A stretch of 64,000 nt of DNA, taken from Raillietiella orientalis (taxonomy: Eukaryota). Positions within the stretch are counted from its first letter, which is position 1. The number at the start of each line of letters is the position of its first letter. The position numbers and the translations under genes are program-made. The stretch is from positions 2,108,001-2,172,000 of the forward strand of contig JAYWIR010000017.1 of NCBI GenBank assembly GCA_036172245.1, written 5' to 3'. This document shows, in pieces, positions 7,141 through 58,924 of the stretch. The notes below the pieces were generated by a model. That model was given only the letters and a program-made list of their open reading frames with translations. It did not search any database and was not told the DNA's origin.

Positions 7141-7149
7141 CCCGCTGAG

Positions 7150-12250: not shown

Positions 12251-12279
12251 CTGGTATATGTAAACCCAATGTCGAACTT

Positions 12280-13273: not shown

Positions 13274-14904
13274 CAGTTTCCAACTGTAAGGTTGAGAATT
13301 CTCTTGCACCACTTCGAGAGTCACTAAGCTCCAAGACGAGCAAACTAGTGTACTCCACTCCATGGCTTGGGGAGAAGAGACTATTTTGTTGAAGCGACTA
13401 TTTTCAGAGCATGTCCCTGAACAACTTGCGATGCCTCCTCTTTTAGTGAACAGTTTGGTGCTAACTCTTCAGGGGAGGTAGGTGGTGATATACACCTACA
13501 CCTCGTTCCCGGGGGAACTACATTCTAGAACTGTTCCAAGTGCAAGAGGATCGAATCGTTTTGACATGTGTTGATGGATCTCCAGGAATAGTGAGTGGCA
13601 GACACCAGTAGCAGCTTTGTCACATTCGCAAAGCAGCTACAAAAAATTACTGAGGCGGCAATTCAGCGCACAAGTTGGAGTTTCTGTAAAAGCTTTGACA
13701 ACGACGATATTTTGCATCCTCTCGATCGTGAATGCCCACCATTTGTTAAACTGTCGAAAGCAGAGACGAGAGGTGACAATCATCTTCATGAAGGCTGCTG
13801 CTATGTGGTGAATATCTAAGTAAATATTAAATATTCGTAAAATTCTGAATGTTTTGGCTTCAGTGACAACTGTTGGAAGACAGTTCTTGCCAAGTACTCT
13901 TTCGATGCAACTTTTAACAACTTTCTGTTGGTACATGGGATTGGCTTTTCCCAAGCATGCCTTCCCTGGTGAAGTCATAAATGTACATCTATCGATACGA
14001 GAACGCGCTTAAAGCTTGGGTACACAGCAAAACTGCCAGCACTAGCGATGGGGGATTCTTTCCATGAATTCGTAATGCGCAGGTTCTATAGGCCAGCAAT
14101 GACGTCCATTGATCTTGTAGAAGATTAGCAGCAATCAAAGGAAAAAATTAAACGAAAAGTGCAAAAGAAAAAGCATGGATGCTTAAGCGTAACTCTTTCA
14201 AAATAAGGTGTCACACAAAATTTCGATCGAGATCTGTTTAGCATCAAGGAGGCATTAATAAAATCGAGAAACAAAAAGTAGAAACGCATTATGCACTTGA
14301 AATCGCTCCTTGCTTGAGAAAACGAAGGGGACGCGACTTTCAATTAGCAGTTCGGCAAGTGATCCTTAGTTTTCATCGCATGCTGCGAATGTCATTTAGT
14401 TGTGTTCATGGAGCACCACAAGGAAAATGATGCCAAACAGTGCTCAGGAAACCATAACGAAGGACAGTATCTTCAGTGAACACGATTTATTGCAAATCCA
14501 CCTGTAGCTGAATAGAACGCATGAAACATCAAATGCATGGTTTTCATATGTGGAGACAGTCAGGAAAACTCGAAGTAAAGAAATGACTGGCAGATACGTT
14601 ATCTTGTGAAAGGATCACTTTATTTCCAGATGCATTTTATATTCGTCTTCAGAAGGCACAGCAACTGAGGAAGCTCCTGGAATAGAATCAATAAATTTTC
14701 GAGACTTCGGATTGCAACTTTCGCTGGCATCTTCCACTGTTCCGAACTTTTGGAGAAATTTGCACGCGCGATTTCAGTTTTTGTCCTAGTCATCCATAAT
14801 ATGCCTGCTTATCCGAATGGTTTTCTGGAAATCGAGTATCTAGAAGCTCGACGTGAAAAACACAAAACCGTTCGTCAAAATGGCAATCTAGGAAACCTCC
14901 GCGC

Positions 14905-14978
14905 TTAGGAGGCATCGAGTGCAAGTCTCATGCATCTGTGTATACGTCGAAGCAGTTTCTCATTTCTTCGAAGCTCTT
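14905..14978 (-). CDS. Candidate terminal exon, short basic cytoplasmic tail
   Basis: TTCTAG acceptor with phase-1 entry gives EELRRNEKLLRRIHRCMRLALDAS*. AATAAA occurs on the minus strand at ~14620 and ~14486-14491. Confidence 0.5.
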
Positions 14979-17900
14979 CTAGAAGTAGCACGCAAGCAGA
15001 ATTCAAGAATACTGATATATTATTCGTATACTGCTTTTCCGCACTAAAACGCACATTGAAACGAGTCAGGCTGCGTTTCGGCTTCGATCTAGGGATCCAT
15101 AAAGAAAGCAAATACTCAGGCACAAATATAAAATGATTTCATATTGAACACCAAATATTATTACAGTAATAGAGCGCTAACAGCTAATATAGTTGCATGT
15201 TTGCTGTTAAAACTGCTTCGAGTATGTCTTGCATTTCTCCGAAAGCACGTCTCATTTCAGTGAAAAAGGTGCTAAAATGGAAGCAAAGAAAAACCAAACT
15301 AACCTCTGATAATGTTGCACCACAGAACGCCTGTCGCCAACATAATTAAAACAAGTGCAAAGAGAATAAGGATTATCATCGTAAATGTATCCAAACCTAA
15401 AAATGAGAAGGTCTTCAGAGATAAGTTTCCAAGATAAGCTGCCGAAGTATTCTGAAAGGTCATGTAAAGCACGGTTTCTCAGTGATCCATATTGGATATG
15501 CAAGAAATTTCGAGGAATTCGGGATTATTTTAGATTGTTCGACTTACTCCATTTTCTTCTTTCGCATAACGACCCGTAGTATTCCTTAGGACAAGTACAG
15601 TTTACTTGACTTTTGAATTTCACCTCACACTTGCCACCATTCATACATGGACATCCTAAAGCAAAAAAAAAAAAGTAATCTTTCGGAGTTGTGGAACAGT
15701 CAGAGCTCTCCACATTAGCGATTTTTTTTTTGTGAAACTTATGATCTGTGATTTTTGCATCCATTCACACTTTCAACAAGCGATATGTGGAAAGAGTTTC
15801 CATTTGCAAGTTGGATCAGTCTTTTTCTTTATTCATCCTCAAGAAACCTGCAGTCAAAAGGCGTCCAGGATTTTTCTTTTGTGTTCGTTGTTATGGATGC
15901 AAACACAGACACTTAGTTCTGCCATAGTGAAACTTACTGCACACAAAGAATCCTGTACTTTCATCCTTCAAGCAATAGTGCTGGCATTCTGATGTTTTAC
16001 CACATCCACAGCCATCCGGAAGAGGTTCTCGATGACACTGAACTAAGAAGAGGTTTATCGTTTAATAGGTGAAAGCAATCTACCGGGGAAATTATTACCG
16101 CACTTTCTGAAACCTGTTGCAAACGTCACTAAACAGGAACGACTAACACACTGATCGTTCGTCATGCAAGCACACCTATCAGGACGATGTAATCCCAAGC
16201 ATAAACCTAACATCGGTGAGCAACCAATCAAAATTATAAAACTTTCTTTTTTTCAAAAGCATTGCTAAAACTGTGCTCTTAAGAAAGCTTGAGTTTACTG
16301 AGATAATGAAGCCTGAAGAATGGGCGTCTATGAATTTTACCGAAACAGTGAATTTGATCAAAATGTGCTTCAACTCTTTGATTGCTCACAAATTTTAACT
16401 ACATCATTTATCACTTTATAATGAATGGAGAAGGGCTTAATTTTCGATGCGTTTACCTCTAGGAAGACTAATATAGACTGCATACGCCCTTTTCAGAAAT
16501 AGAAGCAAAGTGCATCCACTATTGTTCAATTATACGCATAATGAAAGACAGAATCGAGATCTCCCTCAAACGGCTTCGTGTATAAGTGGCGAAGTTTTGA
16601 AAGATATGAGAATGATAGCGATCAATAAGACTCAATAGGGAATTTGAATTCCGTTAGATCCACAAACAGAGCTTTACTTTGAAATGATTCCTCTTGAAAA
16701 TGTCGAGTCCGAAAAAGCTAAATGCAAACGTACTTACTCGGATCACATAGTCCTTTGATGCAGTGATGAAAACAATCCCCATCCTCATCACAAGGGCATC
16801 CTGTGGGCTTCGGGATAACAGTGCAGTCCTCTGCAAGTTGTCTTTTGTCTCAATTCTCATAGCTTTAGGTTAACAATTTTACAAGTATGAGTTCTCCGAA
16901 TTGCTTATCTAGAGTAGTGGATTTGCAAAACCACTGCTTTGTACTTCTCTCGTGTTATTCGAGCTGTAGTTCGAAGCTTGCATTTATATACAAAACTCAA
17001 CTCGTGGTTGCAAAATTTTATTCGAAAAGTATCGTCGTATGCACATAATATAGTCAAGGCAAATGATAGCATAGCGAACCGAAGGTCTACACTTCGTATT
17101 TTGAATACCTTGCTTTAATTGAGGGTTCTCTCTACAATCTAGCTTGGGTGTTCCGAATTCCCAAATTCAAGTTCCCCAATTCCGAATTCTTCACGTTCGT
17201 GAAGTACAAGCTGGAAATTCTACAAACAGTGCTGCAATAACAAAACGAGAGACGCAGATTGGCAAAACAAATTGTTTGCACAGCTCACAACGATATGTGA
17301 ATTGCAAAAAACTCCAGAACGGAAGATACTTGTGACTAGGAGCAGACCATCATCAAATCACTGCACTCTGCTGAATTAGAACTTGATCCATATTCACGAT
17401 TGGCACTTTCGCAGTTTTTCCATCTGAATTATCAGGATCGCTCTAATTACTGACTGTCAAACTGAACCTCCAAGAAAGCGAAAAAGAAGCACAATTCTCC
17501 TTTAAATTAGAGAAAGATCCAAGCAAGCTGGTAGAAGCCGTGTCCAAGCACAATGAAGAAGCAATCGGAATGAACCATAATCTAGTCATTTTTATGAGTT
17601 TAGTAATGATCGCTAATTCTGCTAAAAAAATGCTAGTCACAATGAAAGTCACAAGGCACGAGATCTCAATTTCAGTCTCGAATTGTAAACGTAATTCATC
17701 ATTGAGAGCTCCTACTGAAATAACGAACGGTTTCCTTATTGTCTAAGTGTCTTCGAAAAATGAAGGAAGAGAAGTCTTCCTTCATTTGTAGAAACGAGAA
17801 AAAGAAAAAGCAATTTCGCTGCAGCGATGCGCCGACAAGAATAACTCTGCAAAATATCTGTTTCCGTTTGATCTTCGTTGACCTAGTTTGTTGAGGTCAA

Positions 17901-35900: not shown

Positions 35901-38900
35901 TTTTATTCAAGCACTTGTATGGATACGTACACGTAGCATCCCCAAAACATGGGCATCTGTATTCTCCTGGAGTGGATGTGCAATGTTCTTTAAAAGGAGA
36001 ATTTGCGAAAATAATCATCGATTTCTGAGAATGCATTTACCACATACTCCTTTGAATCCGCATTCCAAACCATCAATACACGTAACATTTCCTGAACACG
36101 GGCAATTATATCCAACCTTTTTAGATCCCGAACATCCTAGAATTCATAAAATATTATGAATGTGACATGAATACATGATATGAAAAGATATGGATGTTTT
36201 GAATGTGAATATAAAAAACGTGTCCAAGCAGATCTGGACGAATGCATTCATTTTCTGTAGAGTTTTCAAAAGAACGGAGCTTTCTGTGTGATTCCCAGGC
36301 AAAATGTTTTATCAGAATGTCATGATTGCTATGAAACTAGGAAAGTGAATTATTCTTAGTCTGTAGGAAGCGATAATGTATTATACGTAACCGTAGTCTT
36401 AGAAATGGGTTCTTGTTTCATGGAATCAGCAGAAGAACTGAAATATGCTGAGAATACTGACCTGGTATCCCTGGTTCTGGACCTAAAATAAAAAATTTAA
36501 GATGAAAAAAAATGAAAGCTTCCGCAAAACCACATACGTGACAAACATTTGAGCTATGTAAATAGACTTTCATTTAGTTCTCTGCGCGAATGTAATCATG
36601 TTCTCGTAGTTTGAAACCATTCCAGGTAATATCTAAGGCTGTCGAAAATTGAGAGTTATCAGAACGCGTTTTTTTTATCACTTATGAGAACAAAATGCAT
36701 AATTTACACAATGCTGAGCGTATGCAAGAGCAATGTTGTTTGTGAGATTTTTTGATACTCACTCGAACTTTATACTATTACTATTACATTCATATAATAT
36801 CATGGAGTGGAAGCAAAATGATAGTTACAGGTCTCTTTTTCGCATCTGTTATTCGATGCACAGCAACCTTTACATTCGTTTCCTTTAGTCTTCGAACATG
36901 CACAGTTTTCATCTTTAAGTAGTTGTTGCTCGCAAGGCACATCTCCCTTAGGTTCTAGAAACAAAGGAACAAAACGTTTAGTGACTACAGATTTTTGCGA
37001 TGGACAGACATGTGAACGTGACATATTATTGCATAAATCCTAGCATGCCATAATCTTATAGTGAATCTTCGTGTAATGAAAGCGCAACAGAAGCACTGCT
37101 TGTAAAAAAGAATTCACCGAAACATAAGCATTCACTTGACTCGCTTGGGAGTCCCTGATAAGTTGCCCACTAAATCCGACAAATACTCGGAGTGATGGCA
37201 AAAATTAACGGTCGCAGCTTGCTCTGCTCACTAGCCCAGATGCTCATTAATAGCTCAGATACGTGAGTGGTATTGCAGTTAAAACTAGCAATACTGTTGC
37301 CGAGATTGGAAGTAATTCGGATGAGTGCAAATGAGAGGGATGGATGTTTCTTTCGTAATGGAAAGAGGGAAGCAAAAAAGTACATAATTCAAATAAACGA
37401 TTGTTTATGAAAGATTGTTTATCATATTACAATTGTTTATCATAAATCAAAAGTGTTTAGTATTGTACCCTGTAATAAGGAGAAGAAAGAAAGAAGTTCG
37501 TGAATTAAGTACAAAGTGGTGTAGGGGAGTCGAGACCGTACAGCTGTCTGCAGTTAGGAAACGCAAGGGACGAGATTTCAGTACCAGCTTTGTAAGCATA
37601 AATAACATCGCCTGCGCAGAAGAGAGCTTTTTTGAACGCACAGGTAAAAAGGATCTGGAATCGATGAAAATGGATTGATTCTGGAATGGTAAAACTCAAA
37701 AGAAGTAAAATTTTCTGATGAATATCCGAATTCATCTGAAGTGGTTGCCAGAATAGGATTCAAGCTGGGCATACAGATTGTGTGAATATAAGATATCAGA
37801 AGCATTTTCCTTACCTGAAGGGCATCCACACTTATAAACATCGAAATGAATACAAAATTTTCTGATGTAAGTTGACAATGACAACACGGCCTGTCCCTGC
37901 AAACGTAGCATTACTGAAATAAAGTATAAGGGTAAGTTATCGGCTTGCACTGCTAGTATGTTTCTCAATTGCATTTGATTGCAAAGAACTGGTATGTATT
38001 CGAAGGTTGACAAAAATTCTCACGGTCCAGCATCAACGAAATTTGTTTCACAATGTTTTTCAATGAACCTGGACAAATTCGTGGGTGTAAACATAGAAAG
38101 AGGGGCTGGAGCTTATGAAGTTTCTCGATCTTATGGGTTTTCTTATGCGTTTCCCGGAGATAGTTTTAGATTATTCATTACAATGAAATCTTCTGTGATT
38201 AGAGTTCAACACTCTGATGAATTTTAAAAGGAATCACACCGTTGTATAAAAACAGTATTCATATTATAAAGATGTGTATTAGGAGAAAAAAAAACCAACA
38301 CCAAGTTTCGTACTGAATTTTTCTTTTACGTGCCAGATCCAGTGGTTGTGAGACACTTCGTTTCACATGAATTTGCAGCCAGTTGTGTGCATAACACTGA
38401 ATTTTCTGTAACCGCTAGCCTTTTGCAATAATAACAGCACCCAACCTTTATAACCATATCCTTCTGTTATGTACAGAGGATTTTCAAAAGCAAACGACGT
38501 TGCTGTTCTGATTATGCAAAATTTCCATTCAAAAACTTTTCAATGCCAACTACTTAAACATATGTCACAATTTCATATTGATTACGTAACCGAGACAAAA
38601 AATGTTTTCAGCGGAATTAGGCAAAAAATAAAACTAATTGAATATTAAAATATTTCGTGAAGAGTATCTGCAACTCCTGGAACCGATTTCTTCAGTTTTA
38701 CCGTGAATGCTTCTCGATTCGACCGTAAAATTGCCTTTCATCTTATTAGATTCTTCCTTTCCGATTTTTTTCTTCCTGTCTTTCAGTGTCCACAATCTGG
38801 TTGATACCTTGCGTACTTTCTTGGAAACAGCGTAGAGCACAGCTTTCTGTCCTCTTTTTCTCATTTGCATGCAAAAGGCTAGAGACATTAACACAGTAGA

Positions 38901-41900
38901 ATGGCAGCCACCTACTTGAAGATTTATGAGTGCATCATGATATTCCTTGCTATTAAGATGTAAAAAAAGCCGTCCATATTGAGCAAGAAAGAAATGAGTC
39001 AATAAGTAACTTATTTGGCCTAAGAGCTTTTGTTTGCGAAATTTTTTCTGGTTTCAGCTTTTAGGATTTGTCTTCAGAATGAAGTTACGATCTCAATTTC
39101 CAATTTACCAATCATAATCAAACAACAAACTTTTGTTGTTCATGAGATGCTTTAGTGGAATCTTAACCATAGTCTTTAGATACTTGTAATACAGATTCCA
39201 ATAAAATCATCTATTTGTTGAGTGTTTGAATGGAACAAGATGCACAGGCTTACGAGTTTGGGGATTATGTGGTTGGATTTGTTTTAGTTAGTATCCTTTA
39301 ATCGGCACTTGCTCAGCAAGGCTCCTCTAATGAGATACAGAATCGTGAGAAAACTGCTCTGCTCTAGTCTGCTTACAGTAGCCAAAAAATTTCATTCACT
39401 GTTTTCTTTCTTTTCACCTGTTACACACTGCAAAGAAGTTTATGATTTTGTGGTTTCCTTGAAGTGACCAGTGTCAAATATGTATACATACATACATACA
39501 TATATATACATATATATATTTCATATAAAGTTTCTGCATACTCTCGTGGCTTAATCTGAGCAATGAGCTCGTATTCACACTTATCCATTATTTTTATTAT
39601 AAGTCACATGAAACAGCACCTCCTACAAGTGCAACTCATGTTTGATCTGGAAGTCACTCTTTAATCCACTGGTATTTTATCCCTGTGAAAGCTCATTTCC
39701 ATTTCCAAGCTGCACAAAATCGTCATCTGCCAACAGTGATTCCAGATAGATGTTTCATCTACATTGAAGGCCAAATTTTTTTCCTTATTTTTTGGGGTCA
39801 GAGAAGAAGGAAGGGGTTCTAAGCTTCAGAGCTTGCTCTGAGCTCCTTTTTTTTTTCTTCTCTCATCTATTTATGCATTTAGAAAGAGAATTTTCTCTAT
39901 AATGACCTTTTCCTATGGAAATTCTCCCTATCATATTAATAGCATTTTGTAATGGAATGCGATGGAAAATCGAAAAGGTAGAAAGCAGTAGGAAAACCTA
40001 ATTAATTTACGAGAATCTTAGCAGGCTGGTCCTCTGCGTATGCACAACAATCTTTTCAAATGTTCGTGTGTACTTTCCGAAATGAGGGAAGAGTTAAGAA
40101 GTGGTTCTTTTCTGAAACATGCTTCCATGCATACGCTTTCAAACTAGGGTCGCGAATTCTTAGATGGACTTCCAATAAAAGCAGATCGAATCTATTTCCT
40201 TGTTTTGGAGCGGTGGTGAATGCATTTATTTTTCCGAATCAGTACTCTGATTCCACTGCTTCTATGAACACAAGTAGTGATTGTGTAATTATTCGTCACA
40301 AGTCTTTATGAGAACAGAACTGCTTTGACAGACATGTCAAGATAACAGCAGACTACTTTCCAAGACATGAGCGCGAACGTTTGCCATTTTCGAAGTGCCC
40401 TTACCTTGTTCACCACTTTTGTTCCCACAGACTACATAATGATTGTCCACCTCTTTATCCAGTTTCTCCAAAGAAATGGATTGAGTCGAGAAGCATGCCA
40501 TGGTTTCATTAAGTCCGGCAGCCATTTCTGCTTCTATGAATTTGATTCTAAAATAATAAAGGATGCCTTTTTAAGTTCTGCTCAATTCGCTTTCTATGAT
40601 TTGTTTAATCGGAGCAACAGATCATTTATTCTTTTTAACCCTCAGAGTTCCGAACTTCTCCTCGAAATGGCGTACACCACAAATTTGGTTTTAAGAGTAC
40701 ACACTTAGAATGTGACTACCGATGTGGACGTAAACTTTATTTTGCGATCATGAAGCTTTTATGACTTGAAAATTGCAATATGCGATGCCATTCAGTGAAC
40801 AGGCATTGATTTCTCTTTAGAGAATTCACTTACAATAGTAACTCCTATACTTTGGTCGCTTATTCTATGATATTTTAGATATGATTGTATTCAATTTAAT
40901 TAACCGCCTTCTGGATGAAAAACAGGATAAAGACCTGAATTTTAAATTGATTTAGCAACAAGGGTAGTTATATTCGATCTTCAACGTTACATTAAGAATG
41001 CATAAAATAAAAATTTCATCGAAAGCAAAAAAAAGCACGCTCATTGCAATACAGCACCACTTAGCTAGCGTCCAATATTTTCACAGCATTTGATCAAGCA
41101 TTTATTCGCTAACGAGTTTTTTGAGCTCTAAATACAATGTACATTTAGCAACAGTATTGTATATACGTTTCCTACAATGAATTCTGCCTTTTATAAAAAT
41201 TGCAGTACTTCCTAATTATGATAATATGCTGATTCAGTTTTCCATTGATAATGAAATCAGTATTCACATTAACAATAGCCGAAGAATATCTGAGCAGTGG
41301 GGAACCGGTTACATTTGGCAGGCAATATTCCAAATGTTAGCGAGGTTAGCTGCACTTTTCTTCAGACGACTCTGGAGTACTTATCATACTTACTCATAGG
41401 AACGAATCAAAGCGGGAGACCCACAGTTTAATTTACTTTAAAATACAGAATTCCTATATGCCTACTTCAGATGTATAAACTTCTATCTACCTGACAGAGC
41501 ATGTGTCTTTAGGAAGCACCAAGGAATACAGACATGGTTTGTAGCAACTTTCGGACTCGTCGGATTTTGCTTCCCATTTCACAAATTCATGGCAATCACT
41601 TTTAAATGAAATCTCATCTTCTTTGTAGCATTCCATATCATCTGTAGAATACCATTATTTATTATTCATTTCGCAAAAATGGATACTCCTTACATGATAA
41701 AGTGAATTTCCTTGACACACCCTTCAATCCTTGATCGTTTTGTGCCGTACAGTAATAAGTTTTGTTAAAGAGATCTGTGAGACGGCCACTTATTCTCAAG
41801 TAAAGAGGTGATTCTTCAGCTCTACGATAATCGTTAGTTAAAAAGGGTGCACTCAAGCAGCTTCGTAGTCAAGAGCTTGTATCTTACGTGTGAGGAATCA

Positions 41901-44900
41901 TCAAGGCATTTTTATCTGTTCCAAAACTAGCGCTGAAAGGTGAATCAGAACTCACAGTACAAAATAACTTTGTGTCCCAACTCTTCATTTGTGGAGGAAA
42001 TATTATCTTGACTTTGGGTTCGACTGGAAATAAGAAAGTAAAATTTTCAATGCTCATAGTTTTTATAATTCCGTCTAAACCCGTAAGTCTTTGATTCTAG
42101 AATGAAAGAGCTCAGCCACAAAAAAGCTTCTAATGGGGATCCATGATTTGATCACTTGATAGGAAACCTAAACTGCAAAGATTACCACACAATACGAAGC
42201 CAGAAAAAGACACGAATAAATGAGCACCGGTTCATGAGAACAATCATCCTATTTCTTATGAAAGTTATCAAAAGTCTCTGGATTACGTAGATTATCTTGA
42301 GAACATGTTTAACAGTGGTGTTCAGAATTCTTGAGTAGTGACAAGGAGAAAATAGCAAATTTCTGTAAACATTCATTCTAGAGTGGAGATACTGTTTTTC
42401 TTTCACAAACCCACTACAGACAATGAAAGGGAAGAAAGTAGATAAATGAGGAAAGAAATTTAGCTTGCATATTGCCAGCATGTAGAGAATCTCAACTCTA
42501 CTCTGGATAAACAAGAATGGAGTTGCTTTGTTTTTGCAAATTGCACACGGTGATTAATTGGAAATGTATTGCGAGGAATGTATTAATGAAGCAATAAAAC
42601 AAATACTAGACACATCTGTCACTCTTCTGCACGATAATGTCCTTTAGGTTTAATTTTTACAGGCTAGAAATCTGAAGAAACCCCGTCAATTTACACAGAC
42701 TATTCGTACACGAAATACACGAGCATTCTCTCGCTTCGAGTGTCTTTGTGATTTCACTTATCCAATGAGAAAACCATTTTCCAGGTACTTTTTCCTTGTC
42801 AGTAAAAGTATGCGTCAAATGATGCGGTTCAGAACTGACATAATGGTATGGAAGCGCAGTTCACAGCAGACTATATGTCCACTGACGTAGCTACTGAGCG
42901 GATACAATACTTTTTCTCTATTCTACACCAATCGCGTAAGATCACTGTCGATTTTTCGTTTCTCAGGAATAATTACTCTGCTTTATTCTGGAAGAGTGAA
43001 TTCTCGCGGTGTTGGGTCTATAGTTTTAGTGGAGCTTTTTAGAAAGAGAAAGCTTTGCCTTCAGAGGACCCAGGCGCTGAGATGTCTGTGTAATCGTCTT
43101 TGAACAGCCGGTGCTTTAATTAACCTACTCATTTCGAATGCTCACAACACTCTTGCGTTTCTTAGGAATTTTCTCGGCTGAAAACTGACGATATTTAGCG
43201 GCAGAGTATTCTCGATTCATTTCCTAGCCAAACGATCAGAGAAGGTTTTACGTACATGAATGGAAGTATATTGGTTTGCATGAAATATGTTTCATGAGAG
43301 AGATCTATTCGACACAATTATTAAATCACTTTCATCATCTCTATTCTGTTAGCAGGCAATAATGATCTTTCCAAATTAGCAAATATTTCATTGTAAGTGC
43401 AAAATAGGAGATCCGAATCAGAATTGAGATAGAAGATTGGATTTTTTTAAAAGTAGTAAAGAGTTTCTCTGATGCGATACAACGCGTAGTTAGCGAATCA
43501 ATTTCCAGATCGTTTGAAGATCTCAACAGAGCAAATCATCGAAACCTATCGGTTACATTGCCTTGCAGCGCTTCCTCAATCAACACCAGAGAACACCCTA
43601 TAATCGGATTCTAAAGATGATAAATAAAGAACGAACTGCAGTGAAATTTCTGCTCGGAAGAAGCAATCACTCAAATCAATTGATTTGATGCATCTGGACT
43701 GAACACTTACAGAATAAAATATGCCTGTTGAACCTCTAATACCGAGTGTTAGAATTCGTAGTATGAAAACACCTTGAAATTTTCCAAAATTGAAATCAAA
43801 GTCAAAATCCGAACTAATTTTTCCATATCGCCCTAATCGTTAAGGACCAAAGTTTTCCAGAAGCTTCAAATCATAATGATCTCTAGCAGTAAATAATATG
43901 GTAAGAATCAGCAACATCTGTTTCAGTCTGTTGAAAAGGTGACCATTTTTGAAAGAAGTTGCAGTCATATTGGAACCAAACATATTGATGAATATTTTAG
44001 AAATATGTTGGAATTTCAGAAAAAAAGGTCCTATCACTAAAGGAAAAATGCGTGAAGGTAGCTTAGAAGAAGTAGTCTTTGAAACAGGATTGAATCACGC
44101 ATCTCAGAGTCAGTAAGTTGCCTGGTCCTGATATGGAAAACTAATCTTAAAATGATTTTGTTCCATTGAGATCAAATCTAACATCTAAGAATACAGATGC
44201 TAATTAAAGCATCCAAAACTAAAGTAAGTATGTCTCCTAGACATTTAGGAAACAGAAATTATCTTGAAATTTCATAGAAAGCATTGCCTGAATTCTTACG
44301 TTTGTGAGGGATAATGCGTATGGGAGTTTCCGCTTGTCGTACAAATGGTATGCCTCCAGAAGTAAACCCTTTGACCTACAGAAACAGCAATAGAAACATT
44401 TCTTTCCTCACTTCCTTCCGATTTTCATTTCAACTGAAAAGTAAGAAAAAGTACCTTAACGTAACCATAGTCGATTATGACACCACCAATGATGTAGAGT
44501 TCATAAGCAGAGTCTTTGGAGGGATTTGCTATCTCCACTCTTAAAACACCATCTCGGTCATAGATTTCAACCGAAGAAATCGATCTGACAGTATCAAATG
44601 GAGTTGCATAGAGAAAATAATGCAAGTTGGTCATTCCTAGTAACAGACGAGTTGCTGTTTAGTTTAACTTCCTTAAATTTCCACATTTCATTTGCTATTT
44701 ACATTTTTTTTTGAAATATTCACCGAAAGGTTGATTTTTTTGATTCATCACGCATGCAGTTAGAAACAAAAGCCTACACGGGGATTACCTTTGCTAAATT
44801 TCTAGATAATTAGGAACTAATGTGTCATAACGCATAATGACAAACTTGAGTCGATGATTGTTTGTTGTATTTGCATACTAAAGAAATAAATAGAAAAGCA

Positions 44901-47900
44901 CTTTCTATGGCATCTGGGTCTCAGAGGAACACGTCATGCATACAAACAACAGTGGATAGGTGAAACAGAAATTCAGCTTCTCAAATTCATTGAACGCTTT
45001 CGCACATATTTCTTGAATATGAAGGTAAAAAGTTGATTCGTAAAAGCATGCACATCAATAAACAACTTTACTTCAGATGCATCATGAAGATTACCTGAAT
45101 TTTTTCATTCAAATAACAACCATTAAAAATGCGATATCGACACACCACATATTTTTCATTGAAGCAATCAATAACAGAAGCATGGCTGAGTATTTCCTTG
45201 ATTTTAATTGTTGTCCATTTCTTAGTGTAAATTTGAGAATGATCCCTGATCTCTGAAAATGATCCACAGTGGGTTCTTTGCTCCTTTGCTACAGATGTCT
45301 ACTCTGTATGCAAAAATACGATAAATATGCAATTAAATCAAATGTCAGTTCATTATCAACATGGACCATACGGAGCAATGGAAATATTTCTTTATAGCAG
45401 AAAGTCTGTATTTTCTTTCTATACCTTTGTGCACAAAATCCCTACCATCAGTAGTCATAGCACGTTAGTGGCACGTTAAAATTTTCTTCCACAAACATGT
45501 TAGTGGAAGTTTCAAAAGCCCGATCTAAGCCGTGCTCCTGCTGGAACATACATTTCTTAATTATTTGAAAATAGATTGCCTTGTTTTAAAAGCACATTCA
45601 ATTCGGTTCTTGCTATTTGTGACTACCAGAAAACTGCATTTTTATCACAGAATTTTCTTCTGATTTTTCAAATAAAACATTGTATTTTCTGTGTCGAAAA
45701 TTTTTTGTCTATTTTATGGATTATTGTATCTGTAATTCTTAGAAATCATGAGTTTAAAGACGAGTGATTGTGCACAATGAAACTAACAGAGATCACAGAT
45801 ACTACTTCAGCTATTTTGATTAGCGCAACCAATGGTGAAAACTTTTCATTTGGAGACAATTTTCTATAAAATAGACATGATTTTCGACAAAAAAAAATAC
45901 AATGCTTTATTTGAAAAATCAGAAGAAAATTCTGTGATCAAAATGCGATGGATGATGAAAAATAGAGCTAGAAATTTATACTGCAGACACAACCAGTTTG
46001 ATGTGCTTTAGCAATTTACTCGTTCTAAAATATCATATTCTTCTCCAATAAACTGTTGTAATATGAGATCTGCAAGTTTCCAATCTAATAAGGCTACCCA
46101 ACTCTAAAGATGAATCAAGTTAACATGTAATCCTTATCGAACAGGAAAATTTCTCACTCTGTAGGCCAAAAGATCTCAGTACTGTTGCCGGAATCCCTTA
46201 AGAGTGTGCTCTCATATTCAATTAACACGGTGTAACACTTGCCAAACTTTTGATAGGGTCTGAAATGACCTTATGTCTAGTCTCATTCGTCGAAATGTTG
46301 CGCATAGCTTTCGAATTTCCCACATCATGCTGAAATGTGAGGAATTCTTCTCTAGCAAACCAACTGACTTATTGATTTGAAAAATAATTATTTTCTTCTC
46401 AGGAGAACATTCTTTTCGTCACGCATCATCATTATGAATCATCCGTTTCCTCTGTGACCCTGTGAATTGACAGCATTTTTTAATTCATTTCCAGATATCG
46501 ATTGTGTCTTAAAGCTTGAGAGAAATGAATGCAAAAAAGTGAATACGCTATTACTTCCAGTCCATGCTTGCAATCTTGTCTCACACTTGCTGACTTTAAA
46601 ACTCCAACTCACGTTTGCTTTTGGTATTTTTTGCAGTGTCTTTTGAGAATTCTTCATGAAAACCGCCACAAATATGGAACCCGTCAACTTCCTTTTGCTG
46701 AAAGTAATAGCGTATTCTACAGAGAAATCAATCTCACTACTGGTTTCCTGATCACTTCGATACATAGTGATGATTCATTCAGTCCATATCCTAGTTTGTT
46801 TTAGTTATGGTTAATGAAAAACTAATATTTCCCCATTTTTGCTGCTCGATATGCACTCTTAGCATTGTATGTATGTGAACAGGGAGAATTCTGCACTTTT
46901 ATGGAAATCATTGTTATTGCATCTCGTATGTAATTCAGCAATCAGAGATTTCTTCAGTAGCAGAGATATCCCACGGAGCTCGCTTTTTGACTTTCAAAAT
47001 AATAGCAGTTTTTCTGTTGGAATTCTAATGCACAAATTTGATTAGAATACATTCTAATGCATTCCAATCAAAGTTGAGTTTTCCATGGCGTTGAGTTTTC
47101 GCATAAAAATTCTAAGTATTTTCTTTTCATTTGAGGAGAGGCAAATACATCATTCATTCAACATATCTATAAAAAGCAATAGAAGCACTTATTGAGTCTT
47201 GGCTTCAAAGGAAGGAGCACACTACGAAATAGCGTTCGTCTATTTCATACCTGTGGGAAGATAAGGAAGGGCATCAGTGAATCGAATGGGCGAATGTCCA
47301 AATCCTCCATCCATCTCCAGCCCTCCAGTTCCTCTGACTTGCAAGTAACACATCATAGATGCATAAGTGTGCGCTACAATTGTATGCGTTCCAACCTCTG
47401 GTTTTCGTTCAGTGTGCAGAATTTTTCCATCTATAGTTGTCCAACGGTGGTTGAAAAAAACTGGGGTATGATATGTGATAGCAAACTTGGGCATGACTAA
47501 GTTTATATTCCCAACATCAACATGAGAAGAAACGATTGTGGTGCATGATAAAACGAATGTGTAGTTTTGAATGGTTTCGTCAAGATCGAAAGAAAAGGTT
47601 TTCCGTTCGGTGTTTACTTCGTAGTGGAGTAAATCTGAATACAAATGAGGGTGAACGACGTAATCGTGGAGAAACTAAAAACATGCAGACATAATCAGTG
47701 TAAACATAAGTATCATATCATCATCATACATATAAAAAATCTCAGAAACAATGAGAATTGATTTCATCGATTCAAGTTTGTTTTTCAATAGAGATTCATT
47801 TGGCAATATTTTTTGCATTCTTCATAGTACACTGCGCGATGCAAACATGGACTCAGTTGCAAGATTCTCAGGTGTTTGTTTATAAAAAAAAATAAAAAAC

Positions 47901-50900: not shown

Positions 50901-53900
50901 AGTCTACGTGTAATATATTTGGCTCCAAATATAAATTATCAAATGATGGAAAATCACTTCAGACATATTAGAGAAAATATAAATAGTCTAATTAATCTGG
51001 TAGGATCTGGAAATAACTGGAATTCGGATAAGTATGAGTTACAAGATCAGAGAAGTGTGTTGAAATGAACGTGAAACCAATTTGAATCCATATTGCGAAG
51101 GGCAAGAGAAGAAAGAGGAAAACATATGAAGCACGGAAAGTCAGGTGAACAATCTATTCAAGCAAGCGTTTTGTTCAGAAATCCATGCTTTCCATGCTTC
51201 ATCAAAGAACTCACGTATTCAAGTACAGAAATTCCTACACTATCAGTAGATTCTGTTAAACGAGGAAACCGACGTCTATAAGCATGCATTATGAGGAAAG
51301 ATTCTCCGTTTGATGCAAAAACAGCTTTGTTCCCTGTGTCTTACATTGCATGCATCGTTTTCGTTATCCAATATAGTATGCTATCCTGAAAAAAAAAAAT
51401 ATATTGATGAAAACCTTGCTGTTGACTTAAACGGTAAGATTGGCAGCTTCTCTCTAATACACTCTGGAAATAACTGCCTGAAATTGGAATGACATTACCT
51501 ACAGCACACAACTGAAATCTACGACAATTTATTAAACATAAAGGTGCACAAAAACTGATAAGTGTCGTTGAAACTGAGAATATTTGAAGTGCCATTTTGT
51601 TCATCCACCACTAACTGACAAGTGTGTACTGAGAGGCATGAAATTCATCAAATCAAGCAATCAATTGTCACATATCAGAACCAACTTGATTTGACACATC
51701 ATAAGTACAGAAAACATAGGACCATGGAAGATGCTTCAAAAACCGATGTGCAATTGCAGGGCTTGATTGATTATGCGTAAGTATAAAATAATTCCAAATG
51801 AACAGAATTTTTACTTGCCTGTCTCGAACTATTTCTCTACACTTTTATTTCTGGAAACAGTCGTAGTTTTTGAAATATAAATTATGTCTGCGTTAAACAT
51901 GAAAGCATTTTATCTTTGTTTCTTCTGACGAGGATTGCTATGCATACAATATTTATACTGCTTTCGAGTGATATCAAATATTTGCAACCACGTTCTACCC
52001 TGTTATCGTTACGAGAGGTGCTTTATCGATTTAAATAATATTTTTCACTGAGGTGCTTTCACTATATTAGTTTATTGCATTTTATCTACCTTTATTTTCC
52101 ATTCCAATGATTCTTTTATGATTCTCGTTACAAGATACTCGTACTTGCTAGATGCATCAGAGAATATTATGATAAAAGACCTAAAAAGCCACAATGTCAG
52201 CCACTATGTTTCAAAATTATCAAATTTTGCAAAAGATACTATTTCGTTGATCGCAAATGCGGTAGTTAACACGAAATGCATGTAAATGCAAAATGGAGGA
52301 ATCTACAACATGAATGAGCGGATTATCTGTACTCAAAAAAGACTACCTTAATTGCAATTGCATTTTCTCTAGAGATCTACTCTTTTATATTACAAGCAAT
52401 GTTGCTTCCGATTTAGCAGATGACCTGTAATTTAACATAATCATCAAAATGCAAGAAAATCCCAGGAAAAAACTTTTTGCCACGAAGAAAAAGGAATGTT
52501 TCTATCTGTTTTCAAGATATGAAACCTATTCTTGAATAATTTCTTCTCTTGATTAACTTTCACTGATAAGAAAGTTTCAAACTACGTTTGTTGTGTTACC
52601 ATGGGGAGTTAATTATGTTCAACCAATTCCATTCCCTAAAAAAGGTCTTCACAAAAATTCTGAATCTTATTCGCTATAGGAACAACATTCATGGCATGTT
52701 TACTTTCATCACGAAAGTAATTAATCGTTTTTTCAGATCCAATTGTTCAAAGTGCATTCTTCGGAATTTTGAGTTTGTGTTTAATGCAATCGCTAACTTT
52801 ATTCTCAAAGTTGACCAGGGAGTAGTCATGTATAAGTAGTGAACCAGTAAATAGTCTTTGCTTTCTTGAAGTTTCTTTCCAGAGATGTGGGTATCAGTTT
52901 TGGGTGCTCTCCCTCGTGCTACCACCGAAGTATACATATGGTTTGTTCTCCTTGCCTGCACCATTTTCCAGGACATGCTTGTAAAAGTGTTTTTAATGTT
53001 TCACAGTTCTTAAGCTCTTTCTGTGTATTATTTTTGCAGAAAGGTGAACTCACTTATAATAGATGCCAATCAACCTAACCTTTCTTCTGCTGAGACAAGC
53101 GTTTCAATATGATGCTGTTTTCCTGCATGGCATTCTCTAATTCTCTTCCAGTAGGAGTGGCGGCTCTTACTTCTACGTTTGGATTTAGAATCACCGATTG
53201 CTACTTTTTTCCTGCATTCTGAAACTTCATATCCAAATTCCCGGATGAACATTCTACAATTTTGTACTGTTTGGCGGACCTCAACTAAGTCCAATTTTTT
53301 GTCATCTGTTGGCGACAAAAATTATTCTGGGATTTCAAAAACCTTCTACACCTTGCTTTGAACACACACATATATGGTGCAGAGTATTTTTATAGAGGAA
53401 TCCGTTTTCTACCATGTCGACTTTGAATTCTCTTCACAGTGAATTGCTGTCTTTTCAGATTCCATATTACGGACAGCCGACACATTATGCATTATTCAGG
53501 CTGAAAATATTGCCGCATATATAATTTTGCAACTCTTAAATTTTGAAATGATCTCTCATTTGATAACCTAACTTTTAAAGGTCAAAAAATGCAGTTGCGC
53601 AGTTTTGTTTTTTTTCGGTATCAAATGTGCCCCCCAAAATTCCATGTGCTCCTTCGTAGGAAAACAGTCTAAAAAAATATTTCGCCATTGGTGTTTCGTA
53701 TTTTTTCATAAGAATAAAGTGTTTCTTGTTAAGAAATTCATTCTCGGCTGGTGGCACACCATACAGTCTCTCGTTTCTCTCGTTACATTTAAATCCTTGC
53801 GTTTCTTCAAGATGGCACTTTTCTGAATTTACAATATGCAGCACCCTTCTACGAAAAGGGTGTGGTTTTCATATGGAGGGGAAAGTATTTGTCAGCATTC

Positions 53901-56900
53901 CTCTTAATCAAAAATATATTTATCTTTGTATTTTGCCCATTACATCCATTAGGGCGTTCTATGCATATGTCGTCTCCATTTTCTCTGATGCATTGCAATC
54001 ATCTGAAACATCCAATTGCCTAGAGGCCACACTCTTGCTGATTCTGCTAAATAAATCTCGCACAATCGAAAAACATAACGGCTTCCATCTGCAACAACCT
54101 GACAATTGGGTGTTCCCATGAAAACTTCATTCAGTTACCTCAGTTATGGAGTGGCACACTAGATAGATCAAGACATCTTATTATCAGTAGTTTGTTCTAT
54201 CATATCAGTAGATGAAGACAACGTAACTCAATGTTTTGATCTTTAGGAAACCCTTGGTGTCTGTAAACCACAGGAGCAAGCTACAATCTCTCGTAAATGA
54301 CCATCGCACAAGCATAAGCCCTGATATAAATGTGATGCTTCCATCAAAACTATAACAATGATTGAGAACATGCGCTCTTGAAATTCAAATATCAAGAAAT
54401 TCCTAATTTCGAAACGATCGATTAATAGGATTATCCATTGAATTTCTTGAGTGTTGTTTCAAGTTGCTTCAAGAGTTTCAAAGCGCATAAACACAGGAGA
54501 AACTGATACAGACCTTCGTTGTACCATATTAAGTGCAACTCCCACCAAAGTGTGATACATTGTTTCTGGATTATCAGGTCCTCCATGTGTAATTTCCAGT
54601 ATGACAGGCAGTATTTTCCGTAGATCTTCACTTCTGTCGGCTACTCCAACTAAACACAAAAAAATAAAGTTTGCACGTTTGTAGTGTGCACTTGAATTAC
54701 TAGCTGCTGAATTTGCAGAACCTTGTGCTCTGTACTTGTGTGGAAGTTGTCTGATGAAACGAGAAGTTTTATGGATAAAAAACCTTATTAAAATCTGGAG
54801 CAAGGGTTCCTCCAGAAGAACAAGATTTCCGAACCTACTAATGCGATTCAATGAAGATTTCCAATGAACGCATGACAAAAACGATTTAAGTCAACGCATC
54901 ATGAAACATTTTCTATTTGCACGCAATCTTCCTTAAGTCAGGTTTTGAGGTTCTTGAATTCAGTTTCAAAGAAAAATCTCTTTTTTACTCTTGCAAGCTT
55001 TTCTTTGACTGCAGTCTTTGATCGCCAATGAATTAGCAGTGCATGCAGTTCGAATAGATTTACCCATAAAACGGAAACAGCGATTCAAGGTGATTTTGAC
55101 GCTTTCGACTACCGATTGATTTCTCCTTTTCTTATGTGAGCTGAAGAAATATATGTATGAAACCATATCTTACAGAACGGTAATAAGACATTTGTGGTGT
55201 CAGCAGTAATTGCTCTCATCACCATCAGTTTTGCATAGACTTTAATAGTATCTCAAAAGATCTGAGAGTCGGATGCTATTGTACGGCTGGGCATTCTTCC
55301 TCCCTCTGACTCTTTTGAGTTCGTCATCCGTTTCGTGAGACTTCACAATCCACTTGCAGTTTATTCTTAATTGTATGTCTCAGTATGGATTCACTAAACT
55401 TCTAGCGAATGAGGCATTCTCGTTCGCTAGAAGAACTAGAAAATCGCTAGAAATCTAGTTCGTTCGTTCGTAATCCGAGCTAACTTCACGATTTCAAGTG
55501 AGCTCGAATTCTAAACAGTGTCTGCGATCCTCGAATGCTCTCGAGATTTCTACAAAAAAACAAACCGCATAATGACTCTTTGACATGACAGTTGGAAATC
55601 GCATTTCCTTTAGTACTGGTGATGATGCGAAGGAAACACAGAAATGAATGCATAAGCTGTTATTTCTTAATAGACCTTGTATATCTCATGGATATTGTCG
55701 ATAGAATAGATCCAAATTCAAAGAAACCAGATGAAAAACACTTTCCTTCCCCGACGGATTGTATCTTCGACATTATAGAAATGATTCGCTACACTGTCTC
55801 AAGTGAGGTGTCCTCTTGAAGTTTCTGTGGAACGTGATTCTTGATGTTGCAAAACAATCCTCCACAAAATGTGAAAGCAAGAAGCTGAGGACAATTCCTA
55901 GGCTGTACCAAAATCAACATAAAAATTGTGAGAATAACAGCGCACAGCTTTTAGTATGCCTGGTTTTTCGACGTAACATCGAAGATTCATGTTAAAAAGG
56001 AAATTATCATAGAAAATCCCCAGTTGCATCACCTGTTCAGTGATGCTCACTACGTTCTTGATAACGGTCTGCATATTTTCGTTCACACTATTATTGTCCC
56101 GAAACTGCATAGCCATCTGAAAAGACTTTATCCTGGTTCACTCTCAGTGGAGCATTTTAAAAATGGCCTTCAAAAATTACCACAGAAACAGAGGGATGGA
56201 ACAGAACCTATGGGAAACAGTTATTGTAGCGTGCAGGCTCCAACAAGCTCTGTACAGTTTTGAAATTTTACTTTTACAGAGATCCTTTTATATAAGTGCT
56301 GAAGGGTTGCCAAACAAACATTCGGTTTGCTTATTGTGTGAGAGATGTGCGATGGTTTGAAAGGAAGAAGAAAAGAATTCGGGATTAAGCTATTCTGCCC
56401 AAATGTGATTTCGACCTTTTCAGCATTGAATATTTCGTTCTTCTTGTACCAAACCAAATGAATTTGATCTTGATCTTATTATTCCAAATTCAGAAAACGA
56501 TAGAAACAAATGGATTTCTTCAGTCATTTGTTACATCCATGAGCTCATTTACTTTAATTGGTTTGCTGCCGCTGCACTTTGGTTAAAATTCATGTGATTA
56601 AATCTAGGTTGCTCTCACATTTTCGATACAAAACACAGTAAGCGATCCTTACATCTATGATCTGCACATCTGATGTAGATTACACATCAGCTATGTAAAT
56701 AGAAGTGGAAGCACTTGTTTTATAGGAATTGATATCTTGTGTTCTTGATCTGAATAGAAGACTTCAAAATCTAAATCGCTTGAAAGTTTCCACTATGTCT
56801 TCGGCAGTTGAATACGTGACAACGAATAATGTTTCAAGTCATCTGTTATAACAGTACTCACAATTCAATGGTAAAAAATGCAAACATTTCTACAAGAAGT

Positions 56901-57543
56901 TTTTCCACTTCAAAAAATCGGAAGCATCTCAGATACACATTAACGAAAATGCTTCCGATTTCTACAGAAGGTACAGGAAGTAATACACAATAATATACAC
57001 GGGTGGTTTCCAGAAGGTCACTTCGTTGGAACGCTCCCGTCTTGAACGACCATCATCAGCTTTCGTTTGCTGCTGACGTTTCAATCTTGCAAATATAAGC
57101 AAACTCCTGTGGAAACTTACGAGCAAAAATTTGTCTTTGAGAATGAGGTGCTGAATGATCCCGAATGCAAACCATTTCATACTCACTTCTTGGCTGTACA
57201 TCGTAGTCGATATCGGAATATCCGATGAGAAAGAAAGGATAGAACGTCCCTTCATGCACAGTATTCACAGCGGTAAAAGTATCATATGCCGTGTTTATGG
57301 CATACTGTGCACTAAATAACATGGAATTGGATATATCAATCATCATGCCAAATGTCTTATATCCCCTTCTTTCGTTAGTGAATGTTCTGTCATATTCTAA
57401 ATCAAAGTAACTCATATTATATGGTACGATACACCATGCAGATGACAATTCCATTGATGACAGTATTAGCGTCAAAATGACAAAGCACTCCTAGAAAAAG
57501 AGGTTTACTCAAAACTGAATGCAGGTTACTGTACTGTACACAT
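14905..57543 (-). CDS. Proposed single gene model: hemicentin/VWA7-like head, Ig domain, ~39 Cys-rich modules, EGF and TM (type I membrane protein). 5' exons are lesioned.
   Basis: A continuous minus-strand series of GT-AG exons, detailed in the entries below. Phases are consistent within 47674-41491 and within 37169-14905. The link across 41490-37170 is plausible but not fully resolved, so two genes remain possible. Confidence 0.6.
15304..15396 (-). CDS. Transmembrane-helix exon
   Basis: 93-nt phase 1-1 exon (TTAG...GTTAGT) encoding SLDTFTMIILILFALVLIMLATGVLWCNIIR. Confidence 0.85.
15548..15655 (-). CDS. EGF-like domain exon
   Basis: 108-nt phase 1-1 exon encoding CPCMNGGKCEVKFKSQVNCTCPKEYYGSLCERRKW (canonical CxNGGxC...CxC...YxGxxCE). 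Confidence 0.9.
15938..18637 (-). CDS. Six Cys-rich module exons
   Basis: Approximate exons: 15938-16042 QCHREPLPDGCGCGKTSECQHYC; 16098-16206 LCLGLHRPDRCACMTNDQCVSRSC; 16738-16830 DCTVIPKPTGCPCDEDGDCFHHCIKGLC; 17911-18027 LAEGCPCSNDFQCLRWMKCNEKTGTC; 18138-18254 CSKRKWRPSGCPCTTPDQCFSGKC; 18548-18637 NCDVAPRLPGCPCSSNAHCQDHCRRRRC. Confidence 0.88.
17330..17423 (-). pseudogene. Decayed Cys-module exon
   Basis: After a TTCAG acceptor the module frame is shifted and reads NCESANREYGSSSNSAECSDLMMVCS*. The GCxC core is lost and there is an in-frame stop. Confidence 0.55.
19196..23568 (-). CDS. Dense cluster of 17 Cys-rich module exons
   Basis: Lower exon boundaries at about 19196, 19391, 19545, 19708, 19853, 20019, 20160, 20422, 20751, 20890, 21285, 21845, 22038, 22181, 22336, 22984 and 23476. 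Examples: ICEQQAKPPGCPCTHHDECEEKFCSGTAC, DACTINPSFPYCSCKSSFQCASGTCINEIC, VCRGRNRNKYCQCERHEDCEKSLRCLEGIC. All are phase 1-1 and several introns are only ~43-55 nt. Confidence 0.9.
24652..30054 (-). CDS. Seven Cys-rich module exons
   Basis: Lower boundaries at about 24652, 25024, 26611, 26978, 27279, 29337 and 29961. Examples: PDCRKTPRFSLCRCKSPTDCASGVCYNGFC, PDCDSSLKSPGCRCSSNTDCRNGECKRNIC, LDCSQTIKPVGCTCKRNSECDSLTCERGLC. Confidence 0.88.
32127..36954 (-). CDS. Nine Cys-rich module exons plus a 21-nt microexon
   Basis: About 32127, 32774, 33006 (4-Cys variant), 34275, 34469, 35764-35856, 35895-35987, 36041-36136 and 36830-36954. Examples: LICPSDKRPEGCTCLSGDNCTSGMCLNKVC, LNCERLPRYPGCPCSTSVWCESKSCTERIC. 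Microexon 36462-36482 encodes PEPGIP, and intron 35857-35894 is 38 nt. Confidence 0.88.
37118..41641 (-). CDS. Linker exons between the Ig domain and the module array (Cys-containing, partly PAN/WSC-like)
   Basis: 41491-41641 DMECYKEDEISFKSDCHEFVKWEAK...CYKPCLYSLVLPKDTCSV; ~41395-41435 KLNCGSPALIRSY; ~38330-38405 NSVLCTQLAANSCETKCLTTTGSG; 37118-37169 WATYQGLPSESSECLCF, which ends in phase 1 and fits the first module. Phases between these exons are not fully reconciled. Confidence 0.45.
38650..39200 (-). mobile_element. Possible piggyBac-like C-terminal remnant
   Basis: KAVLYAVSKKVRKVSTRLW weakly resembles the RCxVCSKKxxRKETR motif seen at 58100-58160. Heavily decayed. Confidence 0.25.
39600..40800 (-). 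mobile_element. pogo/Tigger-like DDE transposase remnant
   Basis: AFNVDETSIW...FHRDKIPVD*RVT at ~39650-39772 resembles FNxDETGLxW...KxRxT. IGSPSKNSRP at ~40150-40175 resembles IGKSxxPR. Fragmented. Confidence 0.4.
41694..42023 (-). CDS. Immunoglobulin (I-set-like) domain, two exons (41888-42023, 41694-41821)
   Basis: EPKVKIIFPPQMKSWDTKLFCTVSSDSPFSASFG...PLYLRISGRLTDLFNKTYYCTAQNDQG. It has the YxCxAxN motif and resembles the first hemicentin Ig domain as I recall it (PKV...CSVDSxxPFxxSF). Confidence 0.85.
44300..47674 (-). CDS. Hemicentin/VWA7-like post-VWA region, three exons (47251-47674, 44455-44636, 44300-44375)
   Basis: Phase-consistent exons encode DLLHYEVNTERKTFSFDLDETIQNYTFVLS...RKPEVGTHTI...QVRGTGGLEMDGGFGHSP...LPTG, MTNLHYFLY...SVEIYDRDG and VKGFTSGGIPFVRQ. 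These match the recalled hemicentin pattern PEAGxWTV...GF...P..G...VxG...G..FxR. Confidence 0.8.
45636..45946. mobile_element. MITE-like element with ~80-bp imperfect terminal inverted repeats
   Basis: 45636-45718 (GCATTTTTATCACAGAATTTTCTTCTGATTTTTCAAATAAAACATTGTATTTT...) is near reverse-complementary to 45865-45946. No TSD was identified. Confidence 0.75.
52600..53400 (-). mobile_element. hAT-like transposase C-terminal remnant
   Basis: TLRIKLAIALNTNSKFRRMHFEQLDLKK resembles the hAT dimerisation motif (LRIxLTxPxTxxxxERxFSxL). Upstream is KLDLVEVRQTVQNC. Decayed. Confidence 0.35.
53945..54280 (-). pseudogene. Two lesioned VWA exons (54139-54280 and ~53945-54040)
   Basis: SLLLWFTD is followed by a 5-nt insertion before GFPKDQNIELRCLHLLI, then a duplicated tract with stops before DVLIYLVCHSITE. 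The next exon, PLGNWMFQMIA...ENGDDICIERP, is shifted by a ~7-nt insertion. Confidence 0.7.
54514..57543 (-). CDS. Signal peptide and N-terminal half of a hemicentin-type VWA domain (exons ~57535-57543, 57187-57490, 54514-54649)
   Basis: MCT|ECFVILTLILSSMELSSA (signal-like), then KTFGMMIDISNSM (MIDAS DxSxS), YPFFLIGYSD, EDLRKILPVILEITHGGPDNPETMYHTLVGVAL (GGGDxPE-like). Splice phases are consistent. Confidence 0.82.
55750..56500 (-). mobile_element. hAT (Buster/SPIN-like) transposase remnant
   Basis: ENMQTVIKNVVSIT...GIFYDNFL...KAVRCYS resembles VMxxVIKIVNFI...LFxxFL...EVRWLS. Decayed. Confidence 0.35.
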
Positions 57544-57559
57544 TTCGAATCTGCACATA

Positions 57560-58920: not shown

Positions 58921-58924
58921 AAAC

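Follow-up and report, generated by a model that had tools for sequence, protein, structure and literature searches.

The 64,000-nt stretch of Raillietiella orientalis DNA analysed here in full (the window; assembly GCA_036172245.1, contig JAYWIR010000017.1, positions 2,108,001 to 2,172,000) contains an AT-rich block at ~14–58 kb whose minus strand carries two groups of exons. The first, here called the head, consists of a candidate signal peptide, a VWA-like domain, a hemicentin-like exon and an Ig-like domain. The second, the stalk, consists of a long array of six-cysteine modules followed by one EGF-like exon, a transmembrane helix and a short basic tail. An earlier note, made from the sequence alone, had placed these parts in this order on one strand and read them as one membrane-anchored protein; all of them are present on the minus strand of the block. 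The region is a genuine and unusual modular gene locus whose stalk and module are, in their details, new, and a fused head–stalk architecture is plausible. The block has a G+C content of 34–42%, compared with 48–62% in its flanks (1–14000 and 58000–64000), and the shift between them is sharp.

The stalk is composed of the following exons:

36829–36954, minus strand: M0, a variant first module (phase 1-1)
36462–36482, minus strand: mini-exon of 21 nt encoding PEPGIP, which joins M0 to M1 (acceptor in the top 0.2% and donor in the top 3.1% of sites)
15938–36136, minus strand: modules M1–M37, one phase 1-1 exon each
15548–15655, minus strand: membrane-proximal EGF-like exon (Pfam EGF, PF00008, E=4.8e-4, 20.8 bits)
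15304–15396, minus strand: transmembrane helix exon (by Kyte-Doolittle hydropathy)
15066–15088, minus strand: last coding exon, DRSRNAA and a TGA stop

Joined from 36954 to 15066, these (M0, the mini-exon, M1–M37, EGF, transmembrane and last exon) make up 41 GT-AG exons of 4,040 nt, encoding 1,345 aa with 239 cysteines and no internal stop. The stalk is a real, robust and intact reading frame, and the module array proposed in the earlier note is borne out by it. A regular expression (regex) for the module core, C-x-C-x(4–6)-C-x(3–7)-C, has 37 matches on the minus strand at 36104–15972 and none on the plus strand; one further minus-strand match, at 60982, is outside the gene. A hidden Markov model built from 17 full units finds 32 matches on the minus strand (13.8–42.9 bits), while the best match on the plus strand reaches 10.0 bits. 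The alignment of 36 units (A1) has the form C1-x9-C2-x-C3-x5-C4-x(3–5)-C5-x(5–13)-C6, with a mean column identity of 23%.

Nearly every one of the ~40 modules is its own phase 1-1 exon, with an AG acceptor one or two residues before the first cysteine and a GT donor just past the sixth. M28 and M29 probably share a single exon, as only 21 in-frame bases lie between them, and it is likely that there are extra variant-module exons with good splice sites at 33074–33006, at 23076–22984 and from 19807. The mini-exon, whose splice sites are among the best of the locus, is needed because M0 spliced directly to M1 gives a TGA. The exon of M0 had been given as 36830–36954; it ends at 36829 and reaches the next module only through this mini-exon. 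The layout of one phase 1-1 exon per module fits growth of the stalk by exon duplication and shuffling, in line with the original proposal. Tandem Repeats Finder detects no DNA repeat in the module array, and the module copies are hence old. Array introns of 37–56 nt (e.g. 35894–35857, 20889–20852 and 20018–19982) occur in this gene beside introns of 1–2 kb. A coding score based on codon usage was also tried on the locus and set aside, as it was dominated by cysteine and did not discriminate.

The membrane end agrees with the earlier description of one EGF, a transmembrane helix and a short basic tail. The EGF-like exon falls just under the Pfam gathering cut-off (20.8 versus 21.5 bits), with the six-cysteine EGF spacing visible. 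The transmembrane exon has a 19-residue hydropathy mean of 3.07, and the next best stretch of the stalk reaches 1.05. Only one AG acceptor fits the last exon, which starts at 15088 and consists of seven codons and the stop, so that the coding sequence ends with the TGA at 15068–15066; the gene end previously set at 14905 lies in another frame. The cytoplasmic tail is basic and 11 residues long (NIIRDRSRNAA), with no recognisable signalling motif and no NPxY.

The module itself does not belong to a named family. None of the 37 module open reading frames (ORFs) scanned matches any Pfam family at E<=0.05, including EB module, Dickkopf_N, DUF7107 and EGF. A search of 1,835,955,588 representative proteins with the A1 profile gives 10 matches at E<=0.001, all weak, the best at 5.7e-11 and 58.4 bits. 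The stalk's own array would score far higher than this, and hence neither it nor its close relatives are in the library. Three of the 10 matches (P0002, P0005 and P0009) share the C-x-C form and belong to no Pfam family. P0002, a metagenomic protein of 473 aa with a hydrophobic N-terminus, contains eight uninterrupted copies of the six-cysteine unit and is the only outside protein with the full module in series. P0005 is a protist transcriptome fragment with three six-cysteine units. Both have the same full spacing as the stalk, C-x9-C-x-C-x5-C-x4-C-x5-C. However, all three proteins are short, have no VWA head and show weak similarity (E=1.3e-8 to 3.3e-4 over the whole library).

Five other matches, which Pfam assigns to EB module, Dickkopf_N or DUF7107 (PF01683, PF04706 and PF23416), resemble only the C3–C6 half of the module. 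The likeness to these families is in the second half, C3-x5-C4-x4-C5-x5-C6, whereas the module here has an extra N-terminal C1...C2-x-C3 part. Because the outside matches share either the full C-x-C form or the C3–C6 half only, the module is, as judged by sequence, a six-cysteine variant on a widespread four-cysteine core, outside the named families. An hhalign comparison of A1 with the outside repeats (~95% probability) was not used, being circular, as the A1 profile had itself served to select the outside units. A homologue search with the module alignment, made among proteins of up to 2,000 aa, found nothing; a full-length orthologue would have escaped such a search. The AlphaFold2 prediction from A1 has a predicted local distance difference test score (pLDDT) of 60, too low to use.

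The head is assembled from exons that are further apart and less uniform:

57535–57558, minus strand: candidate first coding exon (ATG at 57558, second ATG at 57543; phase-0 donor ACA|GTACAG, then a 44-nt intron)
57187–57490, minus strand: exon 1b, signal-peptide core and start of the VWA, with DISNS of the metal ion-dependent adhesion site (MIDAS); phase 0 to 1, acceptor in the top 2.4%, donor in the top 2.0%
54514–54649, minus strand: VWA exon 2, with GGPDNPE; phase 1 to 2
52090–52180, minus strand: VWA exon 3', with SFIIIFSDASS (beta-4 strand and MIDAS Asp); phase 2 to 0
51215–51385, minus strand: tentative exons 4'a (51385–51345) and 4'b (51275–51215), with a 69-nt intron between them; model only
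47251–47674, minus strand: GBD_Hemicentin-like exon of 141 codons (the 47-kb exon); phase 0 to 1
44455–44636, minus strand: further head exon, beta-rich; acceptor phase 1, donor uncertain
41694–42023, minus strand: Ig-like domain in two exons, 42023–41888 (phase 1 to 2) and 41821–41694 (phase 2 to 1), joined in phase 2

Exons 1b, 2 and 3' join in phase and carry all three MIDAS motif positions. The strict MIDAS-like pattern occurs once in the 95,150 residues of the six-frame translation, exactly where the earlier note had placed a VWA with a MIDAS, and GG.D.PE also occurs once, in the next exon. After splicing, 72 residues separate the MIDAS Asp from the GG, and in 30 VWA_4 segments this spacing is 69–72. 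(VWA_4, with its GGGDxPE motif, is the hemicentin-type VWA family, PF25106.) Custom profiles were made from 31 bacterial VWA_4 segments and 7 GBD_Hemicentin segments, obtained through Pfam-based genome searches. The spliced VWA exons align collinearly to positions 17–132 of the 195 in the VWA_4 profile, with 9.4 bits and E=0.07 (2,067 targets); adding exon 3' lengthens this match from 17–102 to 17–132 and raises it from 7.0 to 9.4 bits. None of 3,000 shuffles reaches the real VWA_4 score, in a test that is optimistic in that the exons were partly chosen by motif. In Atlas, a protein-language-model resource, the nearest clusters to exon 1 are all of the VWA clan (0.76–0.83), the very nearest being Integrin_beta at 0.83, which is taken as a lead only. 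Upstream of the MIDAS, exon 1b contains the hydrophobic core FVILTLILSS, with an 11-residue hydropathy mean of 2.51. Another segment, beginning at 54349 and containing WFTDTKG, had first been considered as exon 3 but was discarded, because it lacks a usable donor and leaves the profile match no longer than before.

The 47-kb exon had been named as hemicentin-like in the earlier note, ahead of the profile test. It ranks first among the 2,067 ORFs of the window on the custom GBD_Hemicentin (PF23560) profile, at 6.2 bits and E=0.88, and again none of 3,000 shuffles reaches its score. Its nearest Atlas clusters contain GBD_Hemicentin (0.85 and 0.84; also a lead only). AlphaFold2 run on this exon alone gives an all-beta model whose pLDDT of 42 is too low to justify a fold search. 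Between 44455 and 42023 no phase 0-to-1 exon is convincing; an internal phase-1 donor of the 44.5-kb exon may be used instead. The Ig-like domain that follows has the Cys...YYC pattern with 47 residues between the two cysteines, and its second exon matches Pfam Ig_2 at E=0.071 and 13.8 bits, which is under the cut-off. Among the ORFs scanned (150 and 49), no other matches an Ig family, and the domain is single, as had been claimed. Since the motif spacing, the custom VWA_4 and GBD_Hemicentin profiles, the shuffles, the rank test and the two Atlas leads beat chance, the head probably belongs to the hemicentin/VWA7 type.

Between the Ig-like domain and M0 there are three exons to consider:

41491–41641, minus strand: cysteine-rich linker exon with 5 Cys; phase 1 to 2, AG/GT borders, acceptor in the top 5.2%, donor in the top 7.0%
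40414–40547, minus strand: candidate bridging exon; phase 2 to 1, acceptor in the top 3.0%, donor in the top 3.5%
37815–37913, minus strand: candidate exon ending in a half module, C-x7-C-x-C; phase 1-1, acceptor score 8.1, donor score 7.3

The gap from head to stalk is 4.5 kb on the same strand, of the same order as the long introns of the head (2.3–3.5 kb). The bridging exon at 40547–40414, which has no Pfam match, would restore the frame from the linker exon to the stalk, and the exon at 37913–37815 may also belong to the gene. In the gap there is no first exon of at most 40 codons that resembles a signal peptide and could feed M0, compared with an expectation of ~1.3 from the rate in control introns (0.29 per kb). 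The shared strand, the intron-like size of the gap, the usable donor of the linker exon, the bridging exon and the missing signal-peptide exon all favour a single gene, and we put the chances that head and stalk are one gene at about even.

A number of observations weigh against one gene with a hemicentin-type head. The custom profiles derive from one bacterial phylum only. Among 150 ORFs of at least 38 aa at 34.7–58.5 kb there is no Pfam match to VWA, VWA_4, GBD_Hemicentin or Ig at E<=0.1, and the exon-trimmed head pieces match only Ig_2 (E=0.07–0.12) and not Integrin_beta. Searches of PDB sequences with exon 1 and the 47-kb exon gave nothing useful, and homologue searches with each of these, over the same size range as for the module, gave nothing. 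For the hemicentin/VWA7-type head, then, the custom profiles, spacing, shuffles and rank speak in favour, but Pfam, PDB and the three homologue searches are without a match, which is close to the outcome, no hit to hemicentin or VWA7, under which the earlier note would have given the idea up. A start at ATG 57543 or 57558, and with it the signal peptide, relies on the candidate 44-nt first intron, whose weak donor is only within the top 22% of GT sites. Together with the clear transmembrane helix, this signal peptide would make a type I membrane protein only if head and stalk are one gene. The earlier note had drawn a direct junction from the linker exon to M0, but this breaks the frame, since the linker exon ends at 41491 in phase 2 and M0 begins at 36954 in phase 1. 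Leaving the linker exon out leads to a TAA; its splice borders are proper ones. If it is left unspliced, it continues as SVR and then a TAG (41488–41486), two codons on, with an ATTAAA ~55 nt further. In 23.6 kb of control introns, three phase 2-to-1 candidates arise as well, and an exon-chain dynamic programme was rejected because it overfitted with micro-exons and found many in-frame paths by chance, so that such paths are not evidence. One weak, longer signal-peptide-like start is present in the gap at 37735. Finally, 51385–51215, a segment with a T-rich acceptor and a GTGAGT donor, has an in-frame TAA at 51343–51341 when read straight through.

Part of this is what would be expected of two adjacent genes on the same strand, one encoding a secreted VWA7-like protein (signal peptide, VWA, GBD, Ig and a cysteine-rich end) that stops at the TAG at 41488–41486, and the other a separate type I stalk protein with its own start exon. 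The frame break at the linker junction, the stop and ATTAAA just past the linker donor and the candidate start codons at 37911 and 37735 all suit this explanation. VWA7 is a short secreted protein with a VWA, GBD and Ig-like head layout and without a cysteine-module stalk or transmembrane helix, and the head alone would resemble it. However, the stalk has no convincing signal-peptide exon of its own, the linker donor ranks among the top 7% of GT sites, the bridging exon scores well, and an ATTAAA is, by our estimate, expected by chance in such AT-rich DNA. Two genes are thus possible, if on the doubtful side.

The TAA at 51343–51341, which interrupts a segment that otherwise looks like an open exon and has a strong acceptor, could alternatively mark the head as a decaying or non-functional copy beside a stalk that is a working gene alone, and several poor splice donors and the lack of any significant Pfam match in the head point the same way. 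This is unlikely, as an open path of eight GT-AG exons (421 aa) leads from ATG 57558 to 44455, bypassing the TAA through a 41-nt exon and the 69-nt intron; moreover, the MIDAS motifs and their spacing are intact, and the Ig and linker exons have open frames that join in phase. The codon itself could be a nonsense allele or a sequencing error, or it could merely fall within an intron. Reassignment of stop codons was rejected, since the standard code gives zero in-frame stops over all 1,345 codons of the stalk. That the whole pattern arose by chance or by misassembly is scarcely credible: a perfect inverted repeat of 1,240 bp at the flanks of the block and the sharp change of G+C at its edges could hint at assembly problems, but the strand asymmetry of the regex matches (37 versus 0) and 41 consecutive in-phase GT-AG exons, with 1,345 codons and no stop, effectively refute this for the stalk.

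Under the favoured reading, a single gene, the minus strand would encode one very large type I membrane adhesion receptor of ~53–56 exons and ~1,950–2,050 aa, with the head spliced to the stalk through at least one further exon, for which 40547–40414 is the best candidate. The VWA would bind ligand through its metal site, and ~120 disulfides could stiffen the stalk, which would then act as a rigid spacer keeping the head well away from the membrane. The tail, without a recognisable signalling motif, suggests that the protein would anchor rather than signal. Tentatively, and with a little less than even confidence, we see here a single protein of ~2,000 aa in which phase-1 exon shuffling has joined the ancient hemicentin/VWA7 cassette of VWA, GBD and Ig to at least 40 unnamed six-cysteine modules, an EGF, a transmembrane helix and a minimal tail. 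This would be a new class of matrix receptor, similar in its working to integrin beta and MUP-4 but built from other parts.

Integrin beta has a MIDAS-bearing VWA-like head, a cysteine-rich stalk of four eight-cysteine I-EGF repeats, one transmembrane helix and a short tail. The protein proposed here would work alike, with the same succession of MIDAS head, cysteine-rich stalk, transmembrane helix and short tail, but it has ~40 six-cysteine modules in place of the four I-EGF repeats, and its tail is without NPxY. The hemicentins (him-4; HMCN1 and HMCN2) are secreted members of the fibulin family with a signal peptide, a vWA, a hemicentin motif and ~fifty Ig modules (PMC3707829). The likeness is in the N-terminal order, given here by VWA_4-like motifs, a GBD_Hemicentin-like exon and then an Ig-like domain. 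In contrast, one Ig-like domain is present here instead of ~fifty, and in place of the secreted fibulin-type end there would be, if the locus is one gene, one EGF-like exon and a transmembrane anchor; Pfam scans of the window ORFs (150 and 49) found no fibulin-type C-terminus.

By layout, the nearest known kind is the pair MUP-4 and MUA-3 of C. elegans. These are transmembrane matrix receptors with unusual six-cysteine EGF-like repeats (28 in MUP-4), one vWFA and a single canonical EGF by the transmembrane helix, with two SEA modules and a large filaggrin-like cytoplasmic domain in MUP-4 (PMC2150763). The likeness is one of layout only: a VWA, a long six-cysteine array, one EGF at the membrane and then a transmembrane helix. 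In MUP-4 the vWFA follows the EGF repeats, by our reading of the order given there, whereas the VWA here is N-terminal; the filaggrin-like tail contrasts with 11 residues here, and the repeats here are not EGF by Pfam. No SEA module is matched by Pfam in the scanned window ORFs.

The flanks of the block contain several other features. The 1,240-bp inverted repeat (62761–64000 and 7677–8916, 100% identity) brackets the whole AT-rich block and reaches the end of the window; it could stem from an element present in two young copies, from gene conversion or from misassembly. On the minus strand, 60760–62880 contains an open frame of 706 aa that encodes a reverse transcriptase domain (RVT_1, E=1.3e-17), and a reverse transcriptase-like frame in the left flank, at 9413–9916 on the plus strand, is related to it as judged by eye only. 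These frames represent G+C-rich elements resembling long interspersed nuclear elements on either side of the AT-rich gene. A 253-aa open frame, acidic and rich in Ser and Pro, occupies 58649–59410 on the plus strand, opposite to the head and just upstream of it. Within a head intron there is a shorter inverted repeat of 93 bp (45636–45727 and 45856–45946, 87% identity). Rfam gives zero matches.

For annotators the locus provides a caution: because the obvious junction is out of frame, an ab initio model that bridges the 4.5-kb gap between head and stalk has to be backed by transcripts. Linked to the head or not, the stalk establishes a six-cysteine module that is unnamed in current family libraries and very rare in public protein sets, and the A1 profile could be used to annotate other genomes. 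If head and stalk are one protein, a head usually found on secreted hemicentins would have been redeployed as part of a membrane receptor, which would provide a clean case of receptor invention by exon shuffling.

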